A stretch of 64,000 nucleotides of DNA from Dendrobates tinctorius (lineage: Eukaryota): contig NW_027362260.1 in NCBI RefSeq assembly GCF_039654945.1, positions 1 to 64,000 of the forward strand. The letters run 5' to 3'. Of the stretch, positions 5,499 through 64,000 are shown one piece after another. The notes beneath the pieces are model-generated. The model ran no database searches and had not been told where the DNA came from. It saw only the letters and a program-made list of their open reading frames with translations. Position 1 is the stretch's first letter. Every line of letters starts with the position of its first letter. Both the position numbers and the translations under genes were made by a program.

Positions 5499-5780
5499 TC
5501 ACACAAGGAAAGACTAGAAGCAATGGGATGAAACTGAATGGGAGGAGACACAGATTAGATATTAGAAAAAACTTTTTGACAGTTAGAGTGATCAATGAGT
5601 GGAACAGGCTGCCACGAGAAGTGGTGAGTTCTCCTTCAATGGAAGTCTTCAAACAGAGGCTGGACAGACATCTGACTGGGATGATTTAGCGAATCCTGCT
5701 TTGAGCAGGGGGTTGGACCAGATGGCCCAGGAGGTCCCTTCCAACTCTACGATTCTATGATTCTATGATTCTATGATTCT
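5499..5780 (+). mobile_element. 5'-truncated CR1 LINE (3' end only)
   Basis: End of ORF2 (...RLDRHLTGMI*), 3' UTR and (ATTCTATG)n tail; flanked by AATC on both sides. Confidence 0.93.
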
Positions 5781-6811
5781 AATCCAAAAGTGTCCAGTGT
5801 CCAAAAGTGTGTGCAGAGATTCAAAATCTCCCTTATCCTCTAGTCACTTTGGTCACAGCTGTGCCATCGAGCCTGTGACATAGCGCTCAGATATCAGTGG
5901 GCCTCACACAATCCAAAAGTGTCCAGTGTCCAAAAGTGTGTGCAGAGATTCAAAATCTCCCTTATCCTCTAGTCACTTTGGTCACAGCTGTGCCATCGAG
6001 CCTGTCACATAGCGCTCAGATATTCATTGGGCCTCACACAATCCAAAAGTGTCCAGTGTCCAAAAGTGTGTGCAGAGATTCAAAATCTCCCTTATCCTCT
6101 AGTCACTTTGGTCACAGCTGTGCCATCGAGCCTGTGACATAGCGCTCAGATATCAGTGGGCCTCACACAATCCAAAAGTGTCCAGTGTCCAAAAGTGTGT
6201 GCAGAGATTCAAAATCTCCCTTATCCTCTAGTCACTTTGGTCACAGCTGTGCCATCGAGCCTGTGACATAGCGCTCAGATACCAGTGGGCCTCACACAAT
6301 CCAAAAGTGTCCAGTGTCCAAAAGTGTGTGCAGAGATTCAAAATCTCCCTTATCCTCTAGTCACTTTGGTCACAGCTGTGCCATCGAGCCTGTGACATAG
6401 CGCTCAGATACCAGTGGGCCTCACACAATCCAAAAGTGTCCAGTGTCCAAAAGTGTGTGCAGAGATTCAAAATCTCCCTTATCCTCTAGTCACTTTGGTC
6501 ACAGCTGTGCCATCGAGCCTGTCACATAGCGCTCAGATATTCATTGGGCCTCACACAATCCAAAAGTGTCCAGTGTCCAAAAGTGTGTGCAGAGATTCAA
6601 AATCTCCCTTATCCTCTAGTCACTTTGGTCACAGCTGTGCCATCGAGCCTGTCACATAGCGCTCAGATATTCATTGGGCCTCACACCATCCAAGAGTGTC
6701 CAGTGTCCAAAAGTGTGTGCAGAGATTCAAAATCATAGAATCATAGAATCGTAGAGTTGGAAGGGACCTCCTGGGCCATCTGGTCCAACCCCCTGCTCAA
6801 AGCAGGATTCG

Positions 6812-9544
6812 CTAAATCATCCCAGTCAGATGTCTGTCCAGCCTCTGTTTGAAGACTTCCATTGAAGGAGAACTCACCACTTCTCGTGGCAGCCTGTTCC
6901 ACTCATTGATCACTCTAACTGTCAAAAAGTTTTTTCTAATATCTAATCTGTGTCTCTTCCCATTCAGTTTCATCCCATTGCTTCTAGTCTTTCCTTGTGC
7001 AAATGAGAATAAAGTTGATTCTTCTACAATGTGACAGCCCTTTAGATATTTGTAGACAGCTATTAAGTCTCCTCTCAGTCTTCTCTTTTGCAAACTAAAC
7101 ATTCCCAAATCCTGCAACCTTTCCTCATAAGACAGGGTTTGCAGACCGGTCACCATTCTGGTCGCTCTTTTCTGAACTTGCTCCAGTTTGTTGATGTCTT
7201 TTTTAAAATGTGGTGCCCAAAACTGGACACAATATTCCAGATGAGGTCTGACCAAAGAGGAGTAGAGGGAAATAATGACTTCACGTGATCTAGACTGTAT
7301 GCTTCTGTTAATACATCCTAGAATTGCATTTGCCTTTTTTGCTGCTGCATCACACTGTTGACTCATATTCAGTCTGTGATCTATTAGTATACCCAAGTCT
7401 TTTTCACATGTGCTGTCACTTAGCCCTATTCCTCCCATTCTATATATGCTTTTTTCATTTTTATTGCCCAGATGTAGTACTTTGCATTTCTCCCTGTTAA
7501 AAACCATTCTGTTTGTTGCTGCCCACTTCTCCAGTTTATTTAAATCTTTTTGAATCCTCTCTCTCTCTTCTCTAGTATTAGCTATCCCTCCTAGCTTTGT
7601 GTCATCAGCAAATTTAATCAGTTTACCCTCAATTCCTTCATCTAAATCGTTGATAAAGATGTTGAACAATACAGGGCCCAGGACAGAGCCCTGTGGTACC
7701 CCACTTGAGACATTCTTCCAACTGGATGTGCAGCCATTTACGACCACTCTTTGGGTCCGATCACTAAGCCAGTTATGAATCCACCTAACAGTTGCCTTGT
7801 CCATTCCATACTTAGTCATTTTTTCAATAAGGATTGTATGAGAGACTTTGTCAAATGCTTTGCTGAAGTCAAGATATACTATATCTACAGCATTTCCTTG
7901 ATCCACCCAATCAGTGATACCGTCATAGAAGGAAATTAAGTTAGTCTGACATGACTTATTAGTTAGAAACCCATGCTGACTCTGTTTAATCACTTCATTC
8001 TTATCCAGGTATTGACATACATGTTGTTTAATAATTTGTTCAAAGATCTTTCCTGGTATAGAAGTCAGACTCACCGGCCTATAGTTGCCTGGGTCCACCT
8101 TCTTCCCCTTTTTGAAGATAGGAACAACATTTGCTCTTCTCCAGTCTTCTGGCACTTCTCCTGTTCTCCAAGAATTTTCAAAGATTATGGAGAGGGGTTC
8201 AAAAATTTCTTCTGCTATCTCCTTCAGTACTCTGGGGTGTAATTCATCTGGACCTGGAGACTTGAATTCATTTAGGTTAGCTAAGTGTTTCCTCACTATC
8301 TTTCTGTTTATAGATATCCTGGATTCTTCTATTCCCTTAATAGGACAGTGAATAACAGTTGATGTTGCATTTCCTTTCTGAGAGAAAACAGATGCAAAAT
8401 AGGAATTTAAAAGTTCAGCCTTCTCAACATCCTGTCTTACCATTTCATCATTTTCATCCTGTAAAAATCCTATAGCATCTTTGACTTTTCTTTTACTTTT
8501 GACATATCCCCAAAATCCTTTATTATTGCTTTTGACATCTCTTGCAAGCCTCAGTTCATTTTCAGCTTTAGCTAATCTGATTTGTGCCCTGCAGGTTCTG
8601 CAGACAGCATTATATTCTTCTTTAGATATGCCTCCCTCTTTCCAGTTTATAAACATTTTTTTCTTCCTTTTTAGCATGTGCTTAAGTTCTGTGTTCATCC
8701 ATCCTGGTTTCCTTAAATGCTTCCTATTCTTCCCTCTTTTCGGAATTGTTAACAACTGTGCTTTGAGAATTTCATTTTTCAAGATTTCCCATCCTTCCTG
8801 GACATTTTTGTCTTTAAGGATATCCAGCCATTGGATCCCTCCAATTCTCTTTCTGAATCCCTTAAAATCTGCCTTTCTGAAATCTAACCTTGACGTCTGA
8901 GTCTTCACAGGTCTTCCACCTCTAGTTATCCAAAATTCTAAAATAGCATGGTCGCTACCTCCTAGGGTCCCAGCCACTTTTACCTCCTCAACCATTTCCT
9001 CCCTGTTTATAAGGATTAGATCCAAGGTAGCAGTTCCCCTTGTTTTCTCCCCTACCTTTTGGAAGATAAAGTTGTCAGCAAGAGAGGATAAGAATTTCCT
9101 TGACCTGTTAGTTTTGCCTGAGAGAGATTCCCAACAAATGTCTGGATAGTTGAAATCTCCCATGACAACTATGTCATATTTTTTGGAGAACTTGGCCATC
9201 TGATGCATAAAGAGTTCATCTATATCTTCGGCTTGCACAGGCGGCCTGTAGTAAATGCCTACAATGGTGTCCTTTCCATTGTTCCGTCCTTGTATTCTTA
9301 CCCAAACAGTTTCCACAGAACTTCCAGTCTCTGAAGCTTCAATCTCTGTGCAGATATACGCGTTTCGAACATACAATGCGACACCCCCTCCTCGTTTATC
9401 AAGTCTGTTTCTTGCAAATAAGTTGTATCCTTCTAGTCTTGTATTCCAATCATGTGTATTGTCCCACCAAGTTTCAGTGATTCCAATTACATCATATTTC
9501 TTTTCCTGTGTTAGTAGTTCCAATTCTCCTTGTTTGTTGCCCAT
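6812..9544 (-). CDS. CR1 ORF2: AP endonuclease + reverse transcriptase; the frame stays open upstream to about 9733
   Basis: ITETW, GDFN, LDLIL, SDH (APE); PGPDE, YRPVSL, LDFSKAFD, GVPQGS, FADD (RT). The LKCFYTNAQS motif lies just upstream of the first ATG. Confidence 0.95.
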   Translation of the reverse strand: MGNKQGELELLTQEKKYDVIGITETWWDNTHDWNTRLEGYNLFARNRLDKRGGGVALYVRNAYICTEIEASETGSSVETVWVRIQGRNNGKDTIVGIYYRPPVQAEDIDELFMHQMAKFSKKYDIVVMGDFNYPDICWESLSGKTNRSRKFLSSLADNFIFQKVGEKTRGTATLDLILINREEMVEEVKVAGTLGGSDHAILEFWITRGGRPVKTQTSRLDFRKADFKGFRKRIGGIQWLDILKDKNVQEGWEILKNEILKAQLLTIPKRGKNRKHLRKPGWMNTELKHMLKRKKKMFINWKEGGISKEEYNAVCRTCRAQIRLAKAENELRLARDVKSNNKGFWGYVKSKRKVKDAIGFLQDENDEMVRQDVEKAELLNSYFASVFSQKGNATSTVIHCPIKGIEESRISINRKIVRKHLANLNEFKSPGPDELHPRVLKEIAEEIFEPLSIIFENSWRTGEVPEDWRRANVVPIFKKGKKVDPGNYRPVSLTSIPGKIFEQIIKQHVCQYLDKNEVIKQSQHGFLTNKSCQTNLISFYDGITDWVDQGNAVDIVYLDFSKAFDKVSHTILIEKMTKYGMDKATVRWIHNWLSDRTQRVVVNGCTSSWKNVSSGVPQGSVLGPVLFNIFINDLDEGIEGKLIKFADDTKLGGIANTREERERIQKDLNKLEKWAATNRMVFNREKCKVLHLGNKNEKSIYRMGGIGLSDSTCEKDLGILIDHRLNMSQQCDAAAKKANAILGCINRSIQSRSREVIISLYSSLVRPHLEYCVQFWAPHFKKDINKLEQVQKRATRMVTGLQTLSYEERLQDLGMFSLQKRRLRGDLIAVYKYLKGCHIVEESTLFSFAQGKTRSNGMKLNGKRHRLDIRKNFLTVRVINEWNRLPREVVSSPSMEVFKQRLDRHLTGMI

Positions 9545-9723
9545 GCTTTGTGCATTAGTATAGAAACATTTTAGTTTGTGATTGGTTTCTCTTTCTCCAA
9601 TATTTTTATTAATTAGATTCTTTCGTCTTTGTTCTTCCTTTCCACTTCTAATAGCAGAGTTCTCAATAGCATTTGTCAGGTGTATGGCTTTTTCTGGTCT
9701 TTTGCTTCCCTTCCCATGTTGTT

Positions 9724-10686
9724 CTAGTTTAAAGCTCTCCTTACAAGTGTAGCAAGGCGACTTCCAAATACATGCTTTCCAGTCTTCGTAAGGTGCACCC
9801 CATCTCTAGCAAGTAGTCCATCGTATAAGTAGTTCACTCCGTGATCCAGAAATCCAAATCGTTGCTGACGGCACCATCGACGTAGCCAGTTGTTCACCTG
9901 CAGAATCTTATTCCACCTCCTTGTTCCATGGCCATCCACTGGGAGGATGGAAGAGAAGACCACCTGCGCTCCCAGTTCTTTCACTTTCTTGCCTAAGTCT
10001 TCAAAGTCTCTGCAGATGGTTTCCAGGTCGTTTCTTGCGGTGTCATTTGTCCCCACATGTAGTAGCAGGAATGGGTAGTCATCTGTAGGTCTGAAGAGTC
10101 CTGATATCCTGTCAGACACATCTTTAATTTTTGCACCTGGAAGACAGCACATTTCTCTTGAAGTTATATCCGGTCTGCAGATAGCGGCCTCAGTTCCTCT
10201 CAGCAGGGAATCCCCCATGACCACCACTCTCCGTTTCTTCTTCACAACATTTTTCTTTCTCCATCCAGGAGGACTCTGAAGGCGTACAAGGTTGCTGTTT
10301 GTTGGCAAAGTCTTATCCTGATGTATTTCTTCATCGTTTTCCTGCGTGAGAGCCTGGTACTGGTTTCTGAGCAGTATGGGTGCTGACTGCCTCCTGATCC
10401 TCCTGCTTCTCTGGGTCACATGTCTCCATTCCTCTGTTTCTTCAGGTGCACTTCGAATTTCTTCTCTTTCTGTAACATGAAGAGATAATTCTGCTCTGTC
10501 CAAGAACTCTTCACCTTCCTTAATGATCTTCAACGTAGCTAACCTCTCTTCGAGATTTTGCAACTTTTCCTCCAACAGGGACACAAGCTTGCATTTGTGG
10601 CATGTGAAGTTTGGCTTTTCCACTGGTAAATCTGTGAACATGTAGCAAGAAATGCAGCTCACCAAATGGCTCCTGGCCTCTTCCAT
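9724..10686 (-). CDS. CR1 ORF1: zinc finger, coiled coil and SGNH/GDSL esterase-like domain, 320 aa
   Basis: MEEARSHLVSCISC...TCHKC, heptad leucines, VVMGDSLLRG, HVGTND, DGVHL, ends RRALN*. The ORF-track extension to 10899 runs into the UTR monomers. Confidence 0.9.
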   Translation of the reverse strand: MEEARSHLVSCISCYMFTDLPVEKPNFTCHKCKLVSLLEEKLQNLEERLATLKIIKEGEEFLDRAELSLHVTEREEIRSAPEETEEWRHVTQRSRRIRRQSAPILLRNQYQALTQENDEEIHQDKTLPTNSNLVRLQSPPGWRKKNVVKKKRRVVVMGDSLLRGTEAAICRPDITSREMCCLPGAKIKDVSDRISGLFRPTDDYPFLLLHVGTNDTARNDLETICRDFEDLGKKVKELGAQVVFSSILPVDGHGTRRWNKILQVNNWLRRWCRQQRFGFLDHGVNYLYDGLLARDGVHLTKTGKHVFGSRLATLVRRALN

Positions 10687-10732
10687 CTTGAGATTTCTTA
10701 AAAACGATGAAAGATGAGCCAAACTTCGCGCG

Positions 10733-11286
10733 CCAAAACCCAGTGATCGTTGAGCTCGCGGAGACTCTTCACTTATCCCAGAAGGCACTGGGAATATGCA
10801 AATGATCTCCTCAAGACTCTTCCCCTGGTTTTCCGATTTCCTCTTTTCAGCTGCAACCGCCAAAACCCAGTGATCGTTGAGCTCGCGGAGACTCTTCACT
10901 TATCCCAGAAGGCACTGGGAATATGCAAATGATCTCCTCAAGACTCTTCCCCTGGTTTTCCGATTTCCTCTTTTCAGCTGCAACCGCCAAAACCCAGTGA
11001 TCGTTGAGCTCACGGAGACTCTTCACTTATCCCAGAAGGCACTGGGAATATGCAAATGATCTCCTCAAGACTCTTCCCCTGGTTTTCCGATTTCCTCTTT
11101 TCAGCTGCAACCGCCAAAACCCAGTGATCGTTGAGCTCGCGGAGACTCTTCACTTATCCCAGAAGGCACTGGGAATATGCAAATGATCTCCTCAAGACTC
11201 TTCCCCTGGTTTTCCGATTTCCTCTTTTCAGCTGCAACCGCCAAAACCCAGTGATCGTTGAGCTCGCGGAGACTCTTCACTTATCC
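10733..11286 (-). repeat. CR1 5' UTR made of 4.3 tandem 127-bp monomers, each with an octamer motif
   Basis: Exact 127-bp period; ATGCAAAT at 10796, 10923, 11050 and 11177. Confidence 0.92.
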
Positions 11287-14200: not shown

Positions 14201-15514
14201 CTCACACAATCCAAAAGTGTCCAGTGTCCAAAAGTGTCTGCAGAAATTCAAAATCTCCCTTATCCTCTAGTCACTATGGTCACAGCTGTGCCATCGAGCC
14301 TGTGACATAGCGCTCAGATATCAGTGGGCCTCACACAATCCAAAAGTGTCCAGTGTCCAAAAGTGTGTGCAGAGATTCAAAATCTCCCTTATCCTCTAGT
14401 CACTTTGGTCACAGCTGTGCCATCGAGCCTGTCACATAGCGCTCAGATATTCATTGGGCCTCACACAATCCAAAAGTGTCCAGTGTCCAAAAGTGTCTGC
14501 AGAAATTCAAAATCTCCCTTATCCTCTAGTCACTTTGGTCACAGCTGTGCCATCGAGCCTGTCACATAGCGCTCAGATATCAGTGGGCCTCACACAATCC
14601 ACAAGTGTCCAGTGTCCAAAAGTGTGCGCAGAGATTCAAAATCTCCATTATCCTCTCGTCACTTTGGTCACAGGCAGCTGTGCCATCGAGCGTGTCACAT
14701 AGCGCTCAGATATCAGTGGGCCTCACACAATCCACAAGTGTCCAAAAGTGTGCGCAGAGATTCAAAATCTCCATTATCCTCTCGTCACTTTGGTCACAGG
14801 CAGCTGTGCCATCGAGCGTGTCACATAGCGCTCAGATATCAGTGGGCCTCACACAATCCACAAGTGTCCAGTGTCCAAAAGTGTGCGCAGAGATTCAAAA
14901 TCTCCATTATCCTCTTGTCACTTTGGTCACAGGCAGCTGTGCCATCGAGCGTGTCACATAGTGCTCAGATATCAGTGGGCCTCACACAATCCACAAGTGT
15001 CCAGTGTCCAAAAGTGTGCGCAGAGATTCAACATCTCCATTATCCTTTTGTGACTTTGGTCACAGGCAGCTGTGCCATCGAGCGTGTCACATAGTGCTCA
15101 GATATCAGTGGGCCTCACACAATCCACAAGTGTCCAGTGTCCAAAAGTGTGCGCAGAGATTCAAAATCTCCATTATCCTCTCGTCACTTTGGTCACAGGC
15201 AGCTGTGCCATCGAGCGTGTCACATAGCGCTCAGATATCAGTGGGCCTCACACAATCCACAAGTGTCCAGTGTCCAAAAGTGTGCGCAGAGATTCAAAAT
15301 CTCCATTATCCTCTCGTCACTTTGGTCACAGGCAGCTGTGCCATCGAGCCTGTCACATAGCGCTCAGATATCAGTGGGCCTTACACAATCCAAAAGTGTC
15401 CACTGTCCACAAGTGTGTGCAGAAATTCTAAATCTCCCCTGTCCTATAGACACCTTGTACCTTGTTTTACATTACTATATAGTTTGTTGGATTTTGTCTA
15501 CATTTCTACCAAAA

Positions 15515-18452
15515 ATGAGGAAGGCTGGTGGAAGAGGCCGTGGAATTGGGCGGGGGTTGGCAGCTGGTAATGATGGTGTTGGTGGTGGATCTGATGGTAG
15601 TGGCAAGAGCAAAATAGGACCGAATGCAGGAGGTGCTGACCCTGCGTCATCGTCTGGCTACATAAGGCCTCAAACGCTTAGTTTTCTAGGAGTTGGCAAA
15701 CCGCTTTTAAAGGCAGAGCATCAGGAAAAAGTTTTGTCTTACATTGCTGACTCAGCCTCCAGCTCTATCGCCTCCTCTTCTTCAGTTGTAAAAAGTAAAA
15801 GCACTGAGTCATCATTGGAGGCTCATGTTCATGAACCACACCTTTCCTTGTGTCCTTCACCCCAACCAAGATTGAAGGATGACGCAGGCCATACTACTGA
15901 TTACTCCATGGAGCTGTTTTCACATACCATGCCTGGATTATCAAGTGAAATGGTGAATTACCCAGGCCAAGATGAATCTGACATGGAGTGCACTGATGCA
16001 CAGCCGCTGATGGATGATTCTGCTGGTACATTCACTCAGAGCACTACATTGTCCTCGCAGTGTACAGAGCCAGATTTTGACCCTGATGAGACTCAGGTGC
16101 CCCTTCCCGCACACTATAACACCATACACGGTGACACAGAGAAAGGTGCACATGACATAGAAGAGGAGGTGATGGATGACCCAGTTGTTGCCCCAGATTG
16201 GCATCCATTGGGGGAAGACGGTGCTGCTTCCAATAGCTCAGATGAGGAGCATCCACAGCAGACATCGACATCGCAACAGCTGTTATCTGGCAGGCCCGGA
16301 GCACTCCAAAGACAGGTTCCAAACATCAAAAGAGTTGCTGGACAGCTTGTACAGAGGGTCAAAAGATCACAGCGTGCTAGGCCGCAAAATGTCTGCCAAA
16401 GTAGGAAGAGTGCAGTGTGGCACTTTTTTGAACAAAATCCTCATGATCAGGCCAAGGTTATCTGTAAGAAGTGCGCAAAGACCTTTAGCCGAGGGAAAAA
16501 TCTGAAAAATTTGAATACCAGTTGCATGCTTAGACATTTAACCAGCATGCACTTGCAAGCGTGGACACAACACCAAACCTCAAGTGCCACATGTGCAACT
16601 GATCACAACGAAGGTAGTCAGCAACGCTACATTGTTTCCCCCACTGTAAGCCCACCGGTTAGCACAGCAGCAAATGTTGAGGTGTCGTTGCAAGACCACA
16701 GCAGTCAGGGAATCCCACTGTTATATCAGTCAGCAGTCGTACGAGCACTCCATCTGCAGCTGCCACTGTTGCACACGATGTGTCCCCCTATCGAGCAGCT
16801 AGTGGAAAGCTTCAGCAGGCTGTGTTGCAGATGATGTGTTTGGGCGACAGACACACCGCCGAGGTGCTGGCCGAGTACTTGAAGCGACAAACTGAGTCAT
16901 GGCTGGGCAGTGTACATCTTGAGGCAGGCAAGGTAGTTAGTGATAACGGCCGTAATTTTGTGGCAGCCATAGCCCTTTCAAAACTCAGCCACATACCTTG
17001 CTTGGCTCACACCTTGAACCTGGTGGTGCAGTGCTTCCTCAAAAATTATCCGGAGTTAACAGCCCTGCTCCAGAAGGTGCGAAGACTGTGCGCGCACATC
17101 CGCCGGTCGCCTGTACACTCCGTTCGTATGCAGAAGCTGCAGCGATTGCTCCACCTTCCCAACCACCGCCTCATTATCGACATTGCAACAAGGTGGAACT
17201 CCACCCTGCACATGGTGGAGCGGCTGTGCGAGCAGAGGCAGGCCATAATGCATTTGTGGGAGGATACACGGCCAGGCACTTTGAGAGCAGACATGGAGTT
17301 GACAGGCGTGCAGTGGTCGAAGCTGAAAGACCTTTGTAAAGTCCTTCAGTGTTTTGAGGAATGCACACGGCTGGTAAGCGCAGACGACGCCATCCTAAGC
17401 ATGAGCATCCCACTTATGTGTCTGCTCATGCAAACTTTGACGCACCTTAAGGAGCAGGCGTCTGCAGCCAATGTTGATGAGGAGGAAGAGGAGGAGGGAA
17501 TCCTTGATGACATTCAGCCATTGTCTGCTCAGGGACCTCTCCTGGACGAGGTGGAGGAAGAAGAGGAGGAGGAGGATGATGATGGGGATGATTACTTAGG
17601 GGAGGAGGATGCATCTCGTGGGGCAAGTGAAAATGTTGGCGTGGCAAGGTCTGGTACAGGGTTTGTGCGTGACTGGAGGGATGTGGATTTGCCAGAAAGT
17701 GCTCCTCCACCCAGCACTCGCAGTGCATCATTGACACCGGGAACATTGGCCCACATGTCAGATTATGCCTTGCGGATCCTAAAAAGGGACCCCCGCATTG
17801 CCAAAATGATGAACGATGATGACTACTGGTTGGCCAGCATCCTGGATCCACGCTATAAAGGCAAATTACAAAACATCATGCCACAGGAGAACCTTGACCT
17901 AATATTGGCTAATAAACAAGCAACTCTGGTAAATCGGTTGCTTGAGGCATTCCCAGCACACAGCAGCGGTGATGGTTCTCACAAGAGCCGTACGGGCCGG
18001 GGCAGCTTGGCAGAGGTGTTCGTGGTGCACACAGCAGAAGTGGCGTTGTAGACAGGGGTTTCATGACAATGTTGTGGACTGATTTTTCAAATACCGCTCA
18101 CACAACTGGTAATACTGCATCGATGGAAAGTGACAGGAGACAGCAGTTGTCAACTATGGTTACAAACTACTTTTCCTCCCATATCGATGTTCTCCCACAC
18201 AGGTCATTCCCCTTTGACTATTGGGCCGCTAAACTGGACACCTGGCCTGAATTGGCCCAATATGCCATACAGGAGCTCGCTTGCCCAGCTGCAAGTGTGC
18301 TATCGGAAAGAGTCTTCAGTGCAGCTGGATCAATCCTGACAGAAAAAAGGACCCGTCTGTCAACCCAAAATGTGGATGATCTAACCTTCATTAAAATGAA
18401 CCACGCATGGGTTTCCAAGGATTTTGTCCCACCCTCCCCTGATGACACATAG
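15515..18452 (+). pseudogene. hAT transposase of copy A, disabled
   Basis: Near-identical to 53052-56594, but with a deletion of about 600 bp near 16728 (removes the TTDAW catalytic Asp) and a frameshift near 18000. Confidence 0.92.
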
Positions 18453-21071: not shown

Positions 21072-24000
21072 ATGAAGAAGGCAGGGAGTAAGGCACGTGG
21101 GCGTGGAGTTTCAACAGGGAGAGGACGTGGGGATTCTGCAGGGAGAGGACGTGGGGATTCTGCAGGGAGAGGACGTGGGGATTCTGTGCCTGCTGTTGGC
21201 ACCAGTGACTCAGCATCTCCCAGTTTTAGCAGGCAACAGTCCTTTATGTGCAGCTTTGTAGGACCTCACCGTACCCCACTGCTGCGGGAGGAACAAATTG
21301 AAGCCGTTTTCGGATGGATGGCAGCTAACGCATCGACTTCAATTACTTCCACATCCTCTCAGGGCCAGAGCACCGAAGAGCAACCATCTGTCTCTTCACC
21401 ACCTGCCAAAGTGCCCAGGCAGTCACAGAGCCCTGGACAGGAGCCATCACGGTCTCTACTTCTGTTCTCGGAATCTGTTGGTTTGGAAAGAGGGGGCCCG
21501 CCAAGCAGCATTCCAGAATGTGAAGAAGAGGGAGTATGCAGTGATGCGCAACTTCTTTGTCCCTCTGAATCTGAAGAGGCGGGTGGGCCAGTGCCTATGG
21601 TCAGCACACCTCCGTACGCATCAGATGATGACGAGACACAGGTGCCACTTTCTGTTGCGTACGGTGCTGGCGAGACAATCCAGGAGAAGCAGGTGTTTGA
21701 AGAGGGGAGTGTAGATGATGAGGTCCTTGACCCATCATGGCGTGAGGAACAGGAAGGTGGTGGGAGCAGCTCTGAGGAAGAGATTCCCCTAACGGCCAAA
21801 ACCGGAGGGAGAGGGAGGGGGCAGACTTGGTTGCCTGTAGCCTCCACTTCAACACCCGTTAGGAGCATTACACTTTCAAAAGGGAAAACGGGCGTGGTCC
21901 TTTTTTGACACAGTTGCAGATGACATTTGCTTTGTCAAATGCAAGCTGTGTCATCAGAGAGTCAAAAGAGGGAAAAATGTCAGCAACCTCAATACCACTA
22001 ATATGTGGAAACATGTGCAGGCCAAGCACGAGGTGGAGTTACACAGACACACTGAAGACGTAGGCCAACGTACAGCAGCACCTACCACCTATTCAGCTCG
22101 TGTTGGGGCCTCTTCCTCCAGCTCACACACAGCTGGTTCGGCTTCCTCACAGGATCGCCAAGGAAGAACCTCTGGCACTGTTGTCCGGAGACCCTGTGAC
22201 ATTCCACCCACAGTACCACGTTACAAGTCTTCCTCACACTCCCAGGCCACTCGACAGCCATCGGTAGCACAGGCATGGGAGAAAAGGCGGCCATACTCGG
22301 CTAACCATCCCCGAGCACAGGCTCTGAATGCTGGCATTGTCAAACTACTGGCACTTGAAATGCTCTCATTCAGGCTGGTGGAGACTGACACCTTCTGGGA
22401 CTTCATGGCATTGGCAATCCCACAATACACCGTGCCCAGCTGCTTTTATTTCAGCAGGCGAGCTGTCCCTGCCCTGGAGAAACATGTGGAGGCAATCATA
22501 AAACATGCGCTACTAAACGCCATCAGTAGCAAGGTCTACCTGACCACCGATGCGTGGACCAGTAACCATGGACAGGGATGATACCTTTCCCTCACTGCCA
22601 TTGGGTCAATGTTGTGGAGCCGGGTACAGATCTGGAGAGTGGTGCTCTACGTGTTCTGCCAACTCCACGGATTGCAGGAATCCAGTCTGTACACATTGAC
22701 TCCTCCTCCTTCTCAAGTTCCTCTGAAACAGCGCAGCAGGAGCCTGTTACGACCGATATGAGCTCAGCCGTGGCCAAACGTCAACAGGCCGTACTGAAAT
22801 AATTTATTTGGGGAATCGAAGCCACACAGCGCAGGAGCTCTGGAATGCCATCAAGCAGGAGAGCGACGTGTGGTTTCTGCCAGCGAATCTCCAGCCGGGC
22901 TTGGTAGTGTGTGACAATGGACGAAATCTGGTGGCAGCTCTTGGCCTAGGCAACCTCACTCACATCCCATGTCTGGCACATGTGCTCAACTTGGTCGTGC
23001 AGAGCTTTCTGAGGGACTATCCGGATCGTGATGCACTGCTGCACAAGGTCCGCATAGAGTGCGCTCACTTGCGGCGTTCCAGCACGGCAAGGTCGCGCCT
23101 TGCTGCTCTGCAGCGCCGATTACGCCTTCCGGAACATCGCATCATATGTGACCTACCCACCAGGTGGAATTCTACTTATCATATGTTGGAGCGGTTGTGT
23201 GAGCAGCAGGCAGCAGTCACGGAGTACCAGCTGCATCAGGCGCAAACAAGTCGCACTGTGCGCCGGTCACACTTCAGCACCACTGAGTGGGCCTCTATGA
23301 AGGACATCTGCCTCGTTTTGCGTGCCTTCGATGATTACACGAGGATGGCGAGTGGAGATGATGCACTAGTCAGCATGACTGTCCCCCTTATCTGCCTGCT
23401 TCAAAAAACACTGCAAGCACTAAGGGATGAGGTTTTGGAAGAGGTGGAGGATGAGGAGTCCCAAATGCCATCTGCTTCTGGACAGTCTGCGCTACGTGCT
23501 TCCTCACAAAGGCCTAGGCAGGGGACACTTTGTGAGGAGGATGAGGAGGAGTCGATGGAGGAGGAAGACATCTCTCCAGAGGAGGGAGGTACACAAAGCT
23601 CTAGTCAGTATGTACAGCGAGGGTGGGGTGATGCAGAGCAGGCAGAGATCACGCCTCAAGCAGGGGACAGCGGTTCTTTGGCAGTTGGGAGTCTGCAGCA
23701 CATGGTTGACTTCATGCTGCAGTACCTGAGAAACGACCGCCGCATCGCCCACATTCTCTACTCGGCTAATTATTGGGTGTACACCCTCCTAGATCCTCGC
23801 TACCGGGACAACTTGCAAACCCTCATACCAACGTTGAACCGGGAGCGTAAACTGCGGGAGTACCAAGACACACTGGTGCAGTCCATCATGTTTTCCATTC
23901 CACCCGACAGCAGTGGTGCTAGTGCTTTACAAAGCACCTCTGTGCGTCGAGCCAGTGGAGGAAACTCTGCACAAAGAGGGAGCAGAGGCAGCGCCTCAGC

Positions 24001-24400
24001 ACAAGGCAAGACCACTATGGCCCAAATGTGGCAAAGTTTTGTGTGTCCGCCACAATTGTCTACACCATCACTGACGGCTCCAGTCAGCAGGAGGCAACGT
24101 TTCCGTCAGATGGTGACAAACTACATGTCTTGCCCTGTGACTGTACTCCAAGATGGCTCTTCCCCCTTCAAGTTTTGGGTCTCTAAGCTGGATACATGGC
24201 CAGAGCTTAGCCAGTATGCATTGGTGGTGCTGGCTTGCCCTGCTGCCAGTGTCTTATCGGAACGCGTCTTTAGTGCCGCAGGTGGTGTACTAACATACCG
24301 TCGCACGCAAATTTCTTCCGATAACGTCGACCGACTTACTTTTCTGAAAATGAACAAGGCCTGGATCTCCCCAGAATTTGCCAGTCCTCTTCCCGACTAA
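21072..24400 (+). pseudogene. Second-subfamily hAT transposase (B), frameshifted or stopped near 21900, 22580 and 22800
   Basis: BED finger (CKLC...MWKHVQAKH), YLTTDAWT, VVCDNGRN, CLAHVLNL, TRWNS, SERVFS, hAT dimerisation C-terminus; GRGRGDSA x3 at the N-terminus. Confidence 0.92.
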
Positions 24401-53051: not shown

Positions 53052-56000
53052 CTATGTGTCATCAGGGGAAGGTGGGACAAAATCCTTGGAAACCCATGCA
53101 TGGTTCATTTTAATGAAGGTTAGATCATCCACATTTTGGGTTGACAGACGGGTCCTTTTTTCTGTCAGGATTGATCCAGCTGCACTGAAGACTCTTTCCG
53201 ATAGCACACTTGCAGCTGGGCAAGCGAGCTCCTGTAAGGCATATTGGGCCAATTCAGGCCAGGTGTCCAGTTTAGTGGCCCAATAGTCAAAGGGGAATGA
53301 CCTGTGTGGGAGAACATCGATATGGGAGGAAAAGTAGTTTGTAACCATAGTTGACAACTGCTGTCTCCTGTCACTTTCCATTGATGCTGTATTACCAGTT
53401 GTGTGAGCGGTACTTGAAAAATCAGTCCACAACACTGTCATGAAACCCCTGTCTCCAACGCCACTTCTGCTGTGTGCACCACGAACACCTCTGCCAAGCT
53501 GCCCCCGGCCCGTACGGCTCGTGTGAGAACCATCACCGCTGCTGTGTGCTGGGAATGCCTCAAGCAACCGATTTACCAGAGTTGCTTGTTTATTAGCCAA
53601 TATTAGGTCAAGGTTCTCCTGTGGCATGATGTTTTGTAATTTGCCTTTATAGCGTGGATCCAGGATGCTGGCCAACCAGTAGTCGTCATCGTTCATCATT
53701 TTGGCAATGCGGGGGTCCCTTTTTAGGATGCGCAAGGCATAATCTGACATGTGGGCCAATGTTCCCGGTGTCAATGATGCACTGCGAGTGCTGGTTGGAG
53801 GAGCACTTTCTGGCAAATCCACATCCCTCCAGTCACGCACAAACCCTGTACCAGACCTTGCCACGCCAACATTTTCACTTGCCCCACGAGATGCATCCTC
53901 CTCCCGTAAGTAATCATCCCCATCATCATCCTCCTCCTCCTCTTCTTCCTCCACCTCGTCCAGGAGAGGTCCCTGAGCAGACAATGGCTGAATGTCATCA
54001 AGGATTCCCTCCTCCTCTTCCTCCTCATCAACATTGGCTGCAGACGCCTGCTCCTTAAGGTGCGTCAAAGTTTGCATGAGCAGACGCATAAGTGGGATGC
54101 TCATGCTTAGGATGGCGTCGTCTGCGCTTACCAGCCGTGTGCATTCCTCAAAACACTGAAGGACTTTACAGAGGTCTTTCAGCTTCGACCACTGCACACC
54201 TGTCAACTCCATGTCTGCTCTCAAAGTGCCTGGCCGTGTATCCTCCCACAAATGCATTATGGCCTGCCTCTGCTCGCACAGCCGCTCCACCATGTGCAGG
54301 GTGGAGTTCCACCTTGTTGCAATGTCGATAATGAGGCGGTGGTTGGGAAGGTGGAGCAATCGCTGCAGCTTCTGCATACGAACGGAGTGTACAGGCGACC
54401 GGCGGATGTGCGCGCACAGTCTTCGCACCTTCTGGAGCAGGGCTGTTAACTCCGGATAATTTTTGAGGAAGCACTGCACCACCAGGTTCAAGGTGTGAGC
54501 CAAGCAAGGTATGTGGCTGAGTTTTGAAAGGGCTATGGCTGCCACAAAATTACGGCCGTTATCACTAACTACCTTGCCTGCCTCAAGATGTACACTGCCC
54601 AGCCATGACTCAGTTTGTCGCTGAAAGTACTCGGCCAGCACCTCGGCGGTATGTCTGTCGCCCAAACACATCATCTGCAACACAGCCTGCTGACGCTTTC
54701 CACTAGCTGCTCGATAGGGGGACACATCGTGTGCAACAGTGGCAGCTGCAGATGGAGTGCTCGTACGACTGCGCTCTGTGGACGAGCTTTCGCTTCTGGA
54801 GGAGGAGGAGGAGGAGGAGGGTGGAACGCCTACAGCCAACTGTTTCCTGTACCGTGGGCTAGGCAGCACTGTCCCACCACCGCTGTCCCCTGTGGACCCT
54901 GCATCCACCACATTAACCCAGTGCGCAGTGATGGACACGTAATGGCCCTGGCCATGCCGACTGGACCATGCATCAGTTGTGAGGTGCACCTTTCCGCTCA
55001 CTGACTGCTTGAGTGCATGGACTATGCGGTCTTTCACATGATGGTAGAGGGCTGGGATGGCTTTGCGAGAGAAGAAGTGGCGACTGGGTAGGTCATAGCG
55101 TGGTACTGCATAAGCCATGAGTTCGCGGAAAGCTGTGCTTTCCACCAACCGAAAGGGCATCATCTCAAACGAGATTAGTTTGGCAATGTGGGCGTTCAAA
55201 CCCAGTGTACGCGGATGAGAGACTGAGTACTTTCTTGACCTATTCATAGTGTCTGGGAGGGTGAGCTGGACTTGAGAGCTGCATATGGTGGAAGTAGCGG
55301 TGGACAGGGCGGACTGAGAGAGGGTTGATGATGGTGATGGAGTTGGTGTTCTTTCTGATGGCCTAGAATCAGTCTTTCGTTGATATAACAGTGGGATTCC
55401 CTGACTGCTGTGGCCTTGCAACGACACCTCAACATTTGCTGCTGTGCTAACCGGTGGGCTTACAGTGGGGGAAACAATGTAGCATTGCTGACTACCTTCG
55501 TTGTGATCAGTTGCACATGTGGCACTTGAGGTTTGGTGTTGTGTCCACCCTTGCAAGTGCATGCTGGTTAAATGTCTAAGCATGCAACTGGTTTTCAAAT
55601 TTTTCAGATTTTTCCCTCGGCTAAAGGTCTTTGCGCACTTCTTACAGATAACCTTGGCCTGATCACGAGGATTTTGTTCAAAAAAGTGCCACACTGCACT
55701 CTTCCTACTTTGGCAGACATTTTGCGGCCTAGCACGATGTGATCTTTTGACCCTCTGGACAAGCTGTCCAGCAACTCTTTTGATGTTTGGAACCTGTCTT
55801 TGGAGTGCTCCGGGCCTGCCAGATAACAGCTGTTGCGATGTCGATGTCTGCAGTGGATGCTCCTCATCTGAGCTATTGGATGCAGCACCCTCTTCCCCCA
55901 ATGGATGCCAATCTGGGTCAACAACTGGGTCATCCATCACCTCCTCTTCTATGTCATGTGCACCTTCCTCTGTGTCACCGTGTATGGTGGTATAGTGTGC

Positions 56001-56594
56001 GGGAAGGGGCACCTGAGTCTCATCAGGGTCAGAATCTGGCTCTGTACACTGCGAGGACAATGTAGTGCTCTGAGTGAATGTACCAGCAGAATCATCCATC
56101 AGCGGCTGTGCATCAGTGCACTCCATGTCAGATTCATCTTGGCCTGGGTAATTCACCATTTGACTTGATAATCCAGGCATGGTATGTGAAAACAGCTCCA
56201 TGGAGTAATCAGTAGTATGGCCTGCGTCATCCTTCAATCTTGGTTGGGGTGAAGGACACAAGGAAAGGTGTGGTTCATGAACATGAGCCTCCAATGACGA
56301 CTCAGTGCTTTTACTTTTTACAACTGAATAAGAGGAGGCAATAGAGCTGGAGGCTGAGTCAGCAATGTAAGACAAAACTTTTTCCTGATGCTCTGGCTTT
56401 AAAAGCGGTTTGCCAACTCCTAGAAAACTAAGCGTTCGAGGCCTTATGTAGCCAGACGATGATGCAGGCTCAACACCTCCTGCATTCGGTCCTATTTTGC
56501 TCTTGCCACTACCATCAGATCCACCACCAACACCATCATTACCAGCTGCCAACCCCAGCCCAATTCCACGGCCTCTTCCACCAGCCTTCCTCAT
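53052..56594 (-). CDS. Intact hAT transposase (ZBED-like), 1180 aa
   Basis: MRKAGGRGRG start; BED finger SAVWHFF...CKKC...RHLTSMH; DDE residues in LTTDAWS, VSDNGRN and SERVFS; CLAH; TRWNS; dimerisation domain; no stops. Confidence 0.95.
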   Translation of the reverse strand: MRKAGGRGRGIGLGLAAGNDGVGGGSDGSGKSKIGPNAGGVEPASSSGYIRPRTLSFLGVGKPLLKPEHQEKVLSYIADSASSSIASSYSVVKSKSTESSLEAHVHEPHLSLCPSPQPRLKDDAGHTTDYSMELFSHTMPGLSSQMVNYPGQDESDMECTDAQPLMDDSAGTFTQSTTLSSQCTEPDSDPDETQVPLPAHYTTIHGDTEEGAHDIEEEVMDDPVVDPDWHPLGEEGAASNSSDEEHPLQTSTSQQLLSGRPGALQRQVPNIKRVAGQLVQRVKRSHRARPQNVCQSRKSAVWHFFEQNPRDQAKVICKKCAKTFSRGKNLKNLKTSCMLRHLTSMHLQGWTQHQTSSATCATDHNEGSQQCYIVSPTVSPPVSTAANVEVSLQGHSSQGIPLLYQRKTDSRPSERTPTPSPSSTLSQSALSTATSTICSSQVQLTLPDTMNRSRKYSVSHPRTLGLNAHIAKLISFEMMPFRLVESTAFRELMAYAVPRYDLPSRHFFSRKAIPALYHHVKDRIVHALKQSVSGKVHLTTDAWSSRHGQGHYVSITAHWVNVVDAGSTGDSGGGTVLPSPRYRKQLAVGVPPSSSSSSSRSESSSTERSRTSTPSAAATVAHDVSPYRAASGKRQQAVLQMMCLGDRHTAEVLAEYFQRQTESWLGSVHLEAGKVVSDNGRNFVAAIALSKLSHIPCLAHTLNLVVQCFLKNYPELTALLQKVRRLCAHIRRSPVHSVRMQKLQRLLHLPNHRLIIDIATRWNSTLHMVERLCEQRQAIMHLWEDTRPGTLRADMELTGVQWSKLKDLCKVLQCFEECTRLVSADDAILSMSIPLMRLLMQTLTHLKEQASAANVDEEEEEEGILDDIQPLSAQGPLLDEVEEEEEEEDDDGDDYLREEDASRGASENVGVARSGTGFVRDWRDVDLPESAPPTSTRSASLTPGTLAHMSDYALRILKRDPRIAKMMNDDDYWLASILDPRYKGKLQNIMPQENLDLILANKQATLVNRLLEAFPAHSSGDGSHTSRTGRGQLGRGVRGAHSRSGVGDRGFMTVLWTDFSSTAHTTGNTASMESDRRQQLSTMVTNYFSSHIDVLPHRSFPFDYWATKLDTWPELAQYALQELACPAASVLSERVFSAAGSILTEKRTRLSTQNVDDLTFIKMNHAWVSKDFVPPSPDDT

Positions 56595-56669
56595 TTTTGG
56601 TAGAAATGTAGACAAAATCCAACAAACTATATAGTATGTAAAACAAGGTACAAGGTGTCTATAGGACAG

Positions 56670-57590
56670 GGGAGATTTTGAATTTCTGCAGACACTTGTG
56701 GACACTGGACACTTTTGGATTGTGTGAGGCCCACTGATATCTGAGCGCTATGTGACAGGCTCGATGGCACAGCTGTGACCTAAGTGACTAGAGGATAAGG
56801 GAGATTTTGAATCTCTGCACACACTTTTGGACACTGGACACTTTTGGATTGTGTGAGGCCCAATGAATATCTGAGCGCTATGTGACAGGCTCGATGGCAC
56901 AGCTGTGACAAAAGTGACTAGAGGATAAGGGAGATTTTGAATCTCTGCACACACTTTTGGACACTGGACACTTTTGGATTGTGTGAGGCCCAATGAATAT
57001 CTGAGCGCTATGTGACAGGCTCGATGGCACAGCTGTGACAAAAGTGACTAGAGGATAAGGGAGATTTTGAATCTCTGCACACACTTTTGGACACTGGACA
57101 CTTTTGGATTGTGTGAAGCCCAATGAATATCTGAGCGCTATGTGACAGGCTCGATGGCACAACTGTGACCTAAGTGACTAGAGGATAAGGGAGATTTTGA
57201 ATCTCTGCACACACTTTTGGACACTGGACACTTTTGGATTGTGTGAGGCCCACTGATATCTGAGCGCTATGTGACAGGCTCGATGGCACAGCTGTGACAA
57301 AAGTGACTAGAGGATAAGGGAGATTTTGAATCTCTGCACACACTTTTGGACACTGGACACTTTTGGATTGTGTGAGGCCCACTGATATCTGAGCGCTATG
57401 TGACAGGCTCGATGGCACAGCTGTGACCTAAGTGACTAGAGGATAAGGGAGATTTTGAATCTCTGCACACACTTTTGGACACTGGACACTTTTGGATTGT
57501 GTGAGGCCCAATGAATATCTGAGCGCTATTTGACAGGCTCGATGGCACAGCTGTGACCAAAGTGACTAGAGGATAAGGGAGATTGGATTG
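56670..57590 (-). repeat. 129/130-bp tandem array (about 7 units) in the hAT 5' region
   Basis: Reverse complement of the 5022-15440 unit. Confidence 0.95.
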
Positions 57591-59636: not shown

Positions 59637-61048
59637 GAGCAAATGTTGTTCCTATCTTCAAAAAGGGGAAGAAGGTGGACCCAGGTAACTATAGGCCGGT
59701 GAGTCTGACTTCTATACCAGGAAAGATCTTTGAACAAATTATTAAACAACATGTATGTCAATACCTGGATAAGAATGAAGTGATTAAACAGAGTCAGCAT
59801 GGGTTTGTAACTAATAAGTCATGTCAGACTAACTTAATTTCCTTCTATGACGGTATCACTGATTGGGTGGATCAAGGAAATGCTGTAGATATAGTATATC
59901 TTGACTTCAGCAAAGCATTTGACAAAGTCTCTCATACAATCCTTATTGAAAAAATGATTAAGTATGGAATGGACAAGGCAACTGTTAGGTGGATTCATAA
60001 CTGGCTTAGTGATCGGACCCAAAGAGTGGTCGTAAATGGCTGCACATCCAGTTGGAAGAATGTCTCAAGTGGGGTACCACAGGGCTCTGTCCTGGGCCCT
60101 GTATTGTTCAACATCTTTATCAACGATTTAGATGAAGGAATTGAGGGTAAACTGATTAAATTTGCTGATGACACAAAGCTAGGAGGGATAGCTAATACTA
60201 GAGAAGAGAGAGAGAGGATTCAAAAAGATTTAAATAAACTGGAGAAGTGGGCAGCAACTAACAGAATGGTTTTTAACAGGGAGAAATGCAAAGTACTACA
60301 TCTGGGCAATAAAAATGGAAAAAGCATATATAGAATGGGAGGAATAGGGCTAAGTGACAGCACATGTGAAAAAGACTTGGGTATACTAATAGATCACAGA
60401 CTGAATATGAGTCAACAGTGTGATGCAGCAGCAAAAAAGGCAAATGCAATTCTAGGATGTATTAACAGAAGCATACAGTCTAGATCACGTGAAGTCATTA
60501 TTTCCCTCTACTCCTCTTTGGTCAGACCTCATCTGGAATATTGTGTCCAGTTTTGGGCACCACATTTTAAAAAAGACATCAACAAACTGGAGCAAGTTCA
60601 GAAAAGAGCGACCAGAATGGTGACCAGTCTGCAAACCCTGTCTTATGAGGAAAGGTTGCAGGATTTGGGAATGTTTAGTTTGCAAAAGAGAAGACTGAGA
60701 GGAGACTTAATAGCTGTCTACAAATATCTAAAGGGCTGTCACATTGTAGAAGGATCAACTTTATTCTCATTTGCACAAGGAAAGACTAGAAGCAATGGGA
60801 TGAAACTGAATGGGAGGAGACACAGATTAGATATTAGAAAAAACTTTTTGACAGTTAGAGTGATCAATGAGTGGAACAGGCTGCCACGAGAAGTGGTGAG
60901 TTCTCCTTCAATGGAAGTCTTCAAACAGAGGCTGGACAGACATCTGACTGGGATGATTTAGCGAATCCTGCTTTGAGCAGGGGGTTGGACCAGATGGCCC
61001 AGGAGGTCCCTTCCAACTCTACGATTCTATGATTCTATGATTCTATGA
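59637..61048 (+). mobile_element. 5'-truncated CR1 (RT domain, ORF 59675-60961)
   Basis: Near-identical to 6735-8140 in reverse; (ATTCTATG)n tail; absent from the paralogous site near 29860. Confidence 0.95.
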
Positions 61049-61742: not shown

Positions 61743-63873
61743 AAAAAAGAGAATTGGAGGGATCCAATGGCTGGATATCCTTAAAGACAAAAATGTCCAG
61801 GAAGGATGGGAAATCTTGAAAAATGAAATTCTCAAAGCACAATTGTTAACAATTCTGAAAAGAGGGAAGAATAGGAAGCATTTAAGGAAGCCAGGATGGA
61901 TGAACACAGAACTTAAGCACATGCTAAAAAGGAAGAAAAAAATGTTTATAAAATGGAAAGAGGGAGGCATATCTAAAGAAGAATATAATGCTGTCTGCAG
62001 AACCTGCAGGGAACAAATCAGATTATCTAAAGCTGACAATGAATTGAGGCTTGCAAGAGATGTCAAAAGCAATAATAAAGGATTTTGGGGATATGTCAAA
62101 AGTAAAAGAAAAGTCAAAGATGCTATAGGATTTTTACAGGATGAAAATGATGAAATGGTAAGACAGGATGTTGAGAAGGCTGAACTTTTAAATTCCTATT
62201 TTGCATCTGTTTTCTCTCAGAAAGGAAATGTAACATCAACTGTTCTTCACTGTCCTATTAAGGGAATAGAAGAATCCAGGATATCTATAAACAGAAATAT
62301 AGTGAGGAAACACTTAGCTAACCTAAATGAATTCAAGTCACCAGGTCCAGATGAATTACACCCCTACACCCCAGAGTACTGAAGGAGATAGCAGAAGAAA
62401 TTTCTGAACCCCTCTCCATAATATTTGAAAATTCTTGGAGAACAGGAGAAGTCCCAGAAGACTGGAGAAGAGCAAATGTTGTTCCTATCTTCAAAAAGGG
62501 GAAGAAGGTGGACCCAGGCAACTATAAGCCGGTGAGTCTGACTTCTATACCAGGAAAGATCTTTGAACAAATTATTAAACAACATGTATGTCAGTACCTG
62601 GATAAGAATGAAGTGATTAAACAGAGTCAGCATGGGTTTGTAACTAATAAGTCATGTCAGACTAACTTAATTTCCTTCTATGATGGAATCACTGATTGGG
62701 TGGATCAAGGAAATGCTGTAGATATAGTATATCTTGACTTCAGCAAAGCATTTGACAAAGTCTCTCATACAATCCTTATTGAAAAAATGACTAAGTATGG
62801 AATGGACAAGGCAACTGTTAGGTGGATTCATAACTGGCTTAGTGATCGGACCCAAAGAGTGGTCGTAAATGGCTGCACATCCAGTTGGAAGAATGTCTCA
62901 AGTGGGGTACCACAGGGCTCTGCCCTGGGCCCTGTATTGTTCAACATCTTTATCAACGATTTAGATGAAGGAATTGAGGGTAAACTGATTAAATTTGCTG
63001 ATGACACAAAGCTAGGAGGGATAGCTAATACTAGAGAAGAGAGAGAGAGGATTCCAAAAGCTATAAATAAACTGGAGAAGTGGGCAGCAACAAACAGAAT
63101 GGTTTTTAACAGGGAAAAATGCAAAGTACTACATCTGGGCAATAAAAATGAAAAAAGCATATACAGAATAGGAGGAATAGGGCTAAGCAACAGCACATGT
63201 GAAAAAGACTTGGGCATACTAATAGATCACAGACTGAATATGAGTCAACAGTGTGATGCAGCAGCAAAAAAGGCAAATGCAATTCTAGGATGTATTAACA
63301 GAAGCATACAGTCTAGATCACGTGAAGTCATTATTTCCCTCTACTCCTCTTTGGTCAGACCTCATCTGGAATATTGTGTCCAGTTTTGGGCACCACATTT
63401 TAAAAATGACATCAACAAACTGGAGCAAGTTCAGAAAAGAGCGACCAGAATGGTGACCGGTCTGCAAACCCTGTCTTATGAGGAAAGGTTGTAGGATTTG
63501 GGAATGTTTAGTTTGCAAAAGAGAAGACTGAGAGGAGACTTAATAGCTGTCTACAAATATCTAAAGGGCTGTCACATTGTAGAAGGATCAACTTTATTCT
63601 CATTTACACAAGGAAAGACTAGAAGCAATGGGATGAAACTGAATGGGAGGAGACACAGATTAGATATTAGAAAAAACTTTTTGACAGTTAGAGTGATCAA
63701 TGAGTGGAACAAGCTGCCACAAGAAGTGGTGAGTTCTCCTTCAATGGAAGTCTTCAAACAGAGGCTGGACAGACATCTGACTGGGATGATTTAGCGAATC
63801 CTGCTTTGAGCAGGGGGTTGGACCAGATGGCCCAGGAGGTCCCTTCCAACTCTACGATTCTATGATTCTATGA
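61743..63873 (+). mobile_element. 5'-truncated, disabled CR1
   Basis: ORF2 fragment with a frameshifting duplication near 62360 and a stop at 63492; CR1 tail. Confidence 0.95.
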
Positions 63874-64000
63874 TACTGACTGCTGAGCTGTGTATCTAAT
63901 CCTCTCCTGTGTGATACTGACTGCTGAGCCGTGTATCTAATCCTCTCCTGTGTGATATTGACTGCTCAGCCGTGTATCTAATCCTCTCCTATGTGATACT
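63874..64000. repeat. 41-bp minisatellite (runs off the window)
   Basis: Same unit. Confidence 0.93.

Follow-up and report, generated by a model that had tools for sequence, protein, structure and literature searches.

A conserved slippery heptamer at the ORF1–ORF2 junction of CR1 retrotransposons is consistent with −1 frameshifting into the polymerase frame

ORF1 of a full-length CR1 element of the frog Dendrobates tinctorius ends on the slippery heptamer U_UUA_AAC, and ORF2 lies open in the −1 frame across the ORF1 stop codon. Directly observed are the heptamer and its phase, the open linker without AUG that comes after it, and the conservation of the site as nucleotides. We propose, with a probability of roughly 0.7, that −1 programmed frameshifting (PRF) at this site yields a 1291-aa ORF1–ORF2 fusion.

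The element lies in the window, the stretch of 64,000 nucleotides analysed here (Table 1). Its family is young, in that all 150 scored genomic matches were 100% identical over 170 aa of ORF1. Its ORF2 encodes an APE endonuclease and a reverse transcriptase (RT), and its 3′ end has a hairpin and an 8-bp tandem tail and no poly(A), as in canonical CR1; the ORF2 protein is 50–66% identical to lizard, turtle, alligator and bird ORF2 proteins, which is a measure of similarity only. ORF1 matched Pfam PF13472 with an E value of 3e-7 and 31.4 bits, under the 32.9 cut-off, and ORF1 profile A1 matched PDB entry 4c1b (E 2e-36), while phmmer of PDB with one sequence gave no match. The 127-bp unit of the 5′ UTR contains what we take to be an octamer-like motif. 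The canonical vertebrate CR1 described in the relevant sections of PMC13343379 has the same esterase ORF1, APE–RT ORF2, 3′ hairpin and 8-bp tail; 5′ UTR repeat arrays like the 127-bp one are given there for ORF1-less elements. Elsewhere in the window there are three 5′-truncated copies of the same family (5502-5770, 59637-61042 and 61746-63874, plus strand) and hAT transposase ORFs with zf-BED and dimerisation domains (53052-56747, minus strand; 15095-16834 and 22727-24400, plus strand), one of which, of 1231 aa, looks intact.

Table 1. Features of the CR1 element and its ORF1–ORF2 junction, in window coordinates
Feature	Position	Strand	Remarks
CR1 LINE, full-length, young, intact	6731..11286	minus	lies inside a 130-bp satellite
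5′ UTR	10687..11286	minus	127-bp unit repeated 4.4 times at 10731-11286
ORF1, 320 aa	9724..10686	minus	ATG at 10686, TAG at 9726-9724; Cys motif, likely coiled coil, SGNH esterase; C-terminus ...RRALN*
Slippery heptamer U_UUA_AAC	9727..9733	minus	seen in the sequence and in relatives
ORF1 stop UAG	9724..9726	minus	abuts the heptamer; UAA or UGA in some relatives
Purine/G-rich run	9704..9715	minus	starts at +12 nt from the heptamer; candidate linear stimulator
−1-frame linker without stop or AUG	9575..9726	minus	out-of-frame AUGs at 9717 and 9672
Endonuclease motif I, first beta strand (LKCFYTNAQS)	9545..9574	minus	upstream of the first in-frame ATG, 9544-9542
ORF2 frame, slip site to stop	6812..9733	minus	APE endonuclease and RT
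3′ UTR hairpin	6755..6790	minus	followed by the 8-bp tandem tail to 6731
8-nt complement of the G-run	6759..6766	minus	in the 3′ UTR hairpin; pairing unsupported

The original prediction, made from this one copy, was borne out at the level of sequence. ORF1 ends GCT TTA AAC TAG, so that its codons, the zero frame, divide the heptamer (9733-9727) as X XXY YYZ. The −1 frame has no stop between 9805 and 6812, 997 codons from stop to stop, and LKCFYTNAQS (9574-9545) lies within it, before an in-frame ATG is first reached at 9544. Four out-of-frame AUGs (9717, 9672, 9569 and 9555) lie between the ORF1 stop and that ATG. The fusion, put at about 1290 aa, is computed as a predicted product of 320 + 971 = 1291 aa. 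In a profile alignment, the first Met of ORF2 falls near residue 20 of human L1 ORF2p; in an AlphaFold model the residues that precede it form a beta strand (mean pLDDT 79 over residues 1–10), so that on this model a start at the first AUG would cut the strand off. This strand presumably carries the active-site Asn. A single-sequence fold of the endonuclease was set aside (pLDDT 37). Because the element holds 17 XXXYYYZ-type heptamers on its coding strand, a heptamer in one copy could be due to chance.

Of 243 ORF1-like proteins examined, 133 have their C-terminus between −3 and +12 residues from the expected position. LN is the terminal pair in 117 of the 133, whereas 11 different amino acids (A, T, S, E, G, V, Y, N, F, H and L) occur just before it. 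A metagenome scan gave 76 host-DNA loci: 38 match the C-terminal block, 7 end too early and 31 reach the ORF1 end. In 22 of those 31, an unselected count, N-TTAAAC and a stop were found within 25 nt; the other nine comprise a displaced site (L071), four near matches (L063, L082, L114 and L127), an interrupted one (L097) and three L2-like loci. The 22 loci, L071 and one copy from each of four families in the frog's own genome were pooled for a codon control, giving 27 junctions that fall into 12 clusters at 70% identity. At conserved ORF1 positions elsewhere, TTA accounts for 25 of 303 Leu codons (8%) and AAC for 22 of 50 Asn codons; the chance of TTA by codon usage is then 0.0825^12 = 1e-13, or 4e-6 if only five lineages are counted. 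The three near matches that retain the Leu also use TTA. In lineages that are ∼30% identical, ORF1 is 5–6 codons longer and ends in CLN, YLN, HLN or FLN, still on the same heptamer. The main natural variant differs only at the first base, G_UUA_AAC being found in family A and L083; G_UU(A) is the slip site given for equine arteritis virus in a passage of PMC5009743. The stop codon itself is UAA or UGA in 5 of the 27 junctions. On these comparisons the site is conserved as nucleotides, at synonymous positions, to an extent across lineages that far exceeds chance.

Similar junctions appear in published consensus sequences: in the supplement of PMC13343379, 18 of 24 motif matches resemble the window junction as judged by eye in the first 400 letters of each cell, a count without denominator or phase check, and within those letters they come from sharks, rays, chimaera, bowfin, coelacanth, frog, crocodilians and lizard. 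Scans of viral and GTDB contigs with ORF1, and of viral contigs with ORF2 and with P0355, gave no matches. CR1-like fragments in bacterial and archaeal assemblies (L276-L288; protein P0038) are likely host contamination.

The reading phase is conserved together with the heptamer. Using, for codon, phase and G-run counts, 23 metagenome junctions chosen for having the heptamer, we found the −1 phase in 20 of the 21 junctions that have the endonuclease in view. The −1-phase linkers are 37–95 codons long and show little sequence likeness; over 1120 linker codons the −1 frame contains 7 stops and the two remaining frames 90 and 107, and the linker of L086 is open as far as the endonuclease. In 12 of 27 junctions the −1 frame is closed no more than five codons upstream of the heptamer, and ORF2 must therefore be entered at or after the heptamer in these. 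The suggestion that the site is common to other CR1s thus holds for three families of the frog's genome, for bird-type lineages and for those of ∼30% identity, and judged by these comparisons a clade-wide recoding-type signal is real. A CR1-clade element with a different-looking ORF1 (L277:258-366), probably host DNA in a prokaryotic assembly, has ORFs that overlap by 109 nt in the −1 phase, with an AUG and no canonical heptamer.

Searches of the 6.4 Gb assembly for further CR1 families returned only the four known ones. Of the 62 distinct junctions of the window family (L260 and L272 being counted as a single copy), 61 have the heptamer with UAG, and the −1 linker is open in 56 of 62, a count that lends weak support, the family being young and its copies selected by protein match. 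Among 20 copies of family A, 15 have G_UUA_AAC and four more A at the first base, while family B has U_UUA_AAC UAG in 16 of 20; both are older and decayed, with open linkers in 10 of 20 copies each. Long open frames in three copies from this genome (L031, L266 and L271) proved not to be ORF1–ORF2 fusions. L266 (G000:C364:4929703-4935495) is a window-family copy cut just above the heptamer, inside a hAT transposase, and its open frame of 1906 codons joins the transposase to CR1 ORF2.

When junctions were compared for loss of the heptamer or its phase, both were mostly retained, but family C, whose ORF1 is 34% identical, keeps the heptamer in 69 of 70 copies with most copies out of phase. Its −1 phase requires eight Gs (G8) in the junction run, in which seven (G7) is modal. 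The −1 phase was found in 14 of 43 copies selected by ORF2 and in 16 of 69 selected by ORF1 (nine of them open), and, with lengths read by hand, in ∼18 of the first 100 of 2477 pattern matches. G8 is kept at the junction in 11 of 70 copies as compared with 14 of 25 for a coding G8 within ORF1 (Fisher p 3e-4, ORF1-selected copies); in ORF2-selected copies the junction-versus-control shortening has p 0.06. Because the junction run is shortened more than the control, and because an in-frame AUG is present above the endonuclease, family C may have relaxed its requirement for frameshifting. The coding G8, obligatory for its frame, also contracts, and both runs are 1–2 G shorter in short-read contigs. 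On the tree, G7 copies are interspersed with G8 ones, and of the 10 copies in which ORF1 and ORF2 are both intact, 5 have the −1 phase. The pattern can be explained by G8 templates with biased contraction, RT slippage being reported in PMC5737552 to be stimulated by G-rich templates, or by G7 copies moved in trans. A −2 shift cannot explain family C, since from its sequence this would put UAA in the A site. In the G7 copies (L185-L233 and L289-L360) the −1 frame stops at CUU UUA UAG just past the ORF1 stop, a site that reads UUU UUA UAG in L210; speculatively, ribosomes that slipped by −1 a second time at this point would enter ORF2.

The mechanism that we propose is that some ribosomes would slip one base back at U_UUA_AAC, by tandem tRNA slippage from UUA AAC to UUU AAA, bypass the UAG and continue into ORF2, so joining ...RRALN to LEQHGKG.... 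The product would be an esterase–endonuclease–reverse transcriptase fusion made beside free ORF1p, in the manner of Gag and Gag-Pol. Slippage, its efficiency and its stimulator are what we infer from the arrangement. The least certain step is the pause, which would likely come from the unstructured G-run ∼11–12 nt downstream, either bound by protein or paired with a distant partner, and be aided by the adjacent stop.

The G-run is newly described here. Among 26 junctions, G is found 25 times at position +12 from the heptamer, 24 times at +13 and 25 times at +14, and 22 have the full GGG. In the earlier suggestion the adjacent stop could act as the pause; we keep it as a helper, but it probably does not act alone, the fixed-distance G-run being conserved too. 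The accompanying remark that no downstream pseudoknot was obvious agrees with local folding of the window copy, in which no structure stands out (z = +1.18; pseudoknots are not modelled by the folding), and the folds of the 26 junctions (z from −1.9 to +2.0) likewise gave no local stimulatory structure. A classical stem-loop 5–9 nt downstream of the heptamer was thus not found by folding. A conserved motif 11–14 nt downstream, the mark of protein-stimulated −1 PRF, is present at CR1 junctions; a minority of −1 stimulators start 12–15 nt downstream, some of these being linear and tied to trans-acting factors, according to a passage of PMC5009743. Two other candidates were rejected: an intramolecular G-quadruplex is unsupported (G4Hunter 0.68, with only two GGG runs in the window copy), and a UGGGA motif sits on the wrong side of the stop. 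The latter we took to be calicivirus-like.

A variant of frameshifting that we hold to be unlikely has the G-run pair, over a distance of 2.9 kb, with a run of pyrimidines in the 3′ UTR hairpin, in the manner of barley yellow dwarf virus. The window element does contain an 8-bp Watson–Crick complement (−15.3 kcal/mol) that ranks in the best 0.6% of internal windows, and the corresponding ranks in families B and C are the top 1.5% and 3.4%, but family A is at 23%, shuffled tails give p 0.08–0.57, and in the four families for which both ends were available the cognate junction–tail pairs rank only 4th–13th of 24 permutations. The register, moreover, differs among families, the tail bases are largely within the hairpin, and two distinct window-family copies carry a tail change in the duplex with the junction unchanged. 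An apparent ‘covariation’ of G-run and tail, seen by eye, failed the permutation and shuffle tests.

Termination–reinitiation remains the main rival, although we think it improbable. On this view, as in L1 and SART1, translation would terminate at the UAG and then resume in the −1 frame from an AUG or non-AUG codon close by, the heptamer and G-run serving to hold the ribosome. This is the described route for LINEs, in the accounts of SART1 UAAUG in part of PMC3708506 and of novel initiation in mammalian LINEs in part of PMC5009743, and it would suit the out-of-phase copies of family C. A linker AUG is present in 14 of 20 in-phase lineages, lying two codons past the stop in several bird-type lineages, at codon 8 in families A and B and at codon 35 in family C. 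Its position is not conserved, however, ranging from codon 5 to 90, and it is absent from the other 6 of 20, including the window copy, in which the four out-of-frame AUGs come first. Nor does reinitiation predict an exact X XXY YYZ heptamer that varies mainly at its first base.

It is very unlikely that ORF2 is expressed from a separate RNA, made by splicing to the AG of the stop or from an internal promoter, with the heptamer as an RNA-processing signal. CUAG would suit a 3′ splice site and TTTAAA is TATA-box-like, by the usual consensus sequences, but the stop is not always UAG, as noted above, an upstream pyrimidine tract is absent, none of 15 contig joints falls at the site (among those listed, with 30 more beyond), and the 5′-truncated copies seen begin at scattered places. 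Hardly credible is the reading in which the heptamer has no recoding role and merely results from selection on the LN at the C-terminus of the protein together with overlapping coding. In alignment A1, L319 does not vary and N320 scarcely does, but such constraint does not fix TTA, and the codon control largely refutes the reading; LN also remains terminal when ORF1 lengthens, and the match to the homologous solved esterase stops at profile position 325 of 329.

The −1 frameshifting that we favour has several relatives among known systems. Coronaviruses and retroviruses fuse a structural gene to the polymerase at the same heptamer, which is among the most shift-prone in mammalian ribosomes (passages of PMC5009743 for both points and of PMC7618472 for the first); unlike them, CR1 has no obvious stem-loop or pseudoknot 5–9 nt downstream, its stop abuts the heptamer and the host is a non-LTR element. 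Closer in layout are arterivirus nsp1beta/PCBP and cardiovirus 2A frameshifting, for which the same two sources, in part, give a conserved element 11–14 nt downstream, as in CR1, whereas the CR1 motif is G-rich and its protein-binding role putative. Dictyostelium TRE5-A and TRE3-A, also APE-type non-LTR elements, have an ORF2 stated in part of PMC5911963 to need a −1 frameshift, but they belong to a different lineage and have a different ORF1. L1 and SART1 share the bicistronic LINE RNA but make a separate ORF2p with its own start (parts of PMC3708506 and PMC5009743), whereas the window ORF2 has no start above its first motif. No report of CR1 frameshifting was found in the portions of the literature surveyed, which included PMC11835228, PMC5006619, PMC3905857 and PMC13708176; the original CR1 descriptions may mention the overlap. 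The main text of PMC13343379 contains no occurrence of ‘frameshift’, ‘overlap’ or ‘translat’.

A bolder generalization, which we regard as doubtful, is that the main LINE of most vertebrates makes its polymerase as an ORF1–ORF2 fusion resembling Gag-Pol, by a −1 frameshift without need of local RNA structure that a protein, possibly ORF1p itself, switches on from the G-rich motif 11 nt downstream, and that LINEs with an esterase ORF1 generally make fusions, through other shifty heptamers or UGA-CUG readthrough. Distant esterase ORF1s (P0313, P0346, P0355 and P0359) end in QGN or SKN, which could encode G_GGA_AAC and A_AAA_AAC, other highly shifty heptamers. The heptamer is absent from three L2-like elements with an esterase ORF1 (L101, L124 and L128, with match ends at ∼2420, 2410 and 760). 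The ORF1 stop of L101 and L124 is UGA and the next codon CUG, L128 shares this stop–Leu layout, and in L124 the ORF1 frame continues open past the stop for ∼90 codons, into the endonuclease. We assume UGA-CUG in L101 and L124 to be a readthrough-type context, and a readthrough fusion is possible at these loci.

How LINE ORF2 is translated is a long-standing question that has been answered for a few elements only, by re-initiation. If CR1 frameshifts as we propose, its ORF2p would carry an esterase and multimerisation module, the frameshift would set the ratio of ORF1p to ORF2p, and annotations that start ORF2 at the first AUG would miss part of the endonuclease. It would also guide the expression of intact CR1 in retrotransposition assays, and an abundant transposon would come under host factors that target frameshifting.
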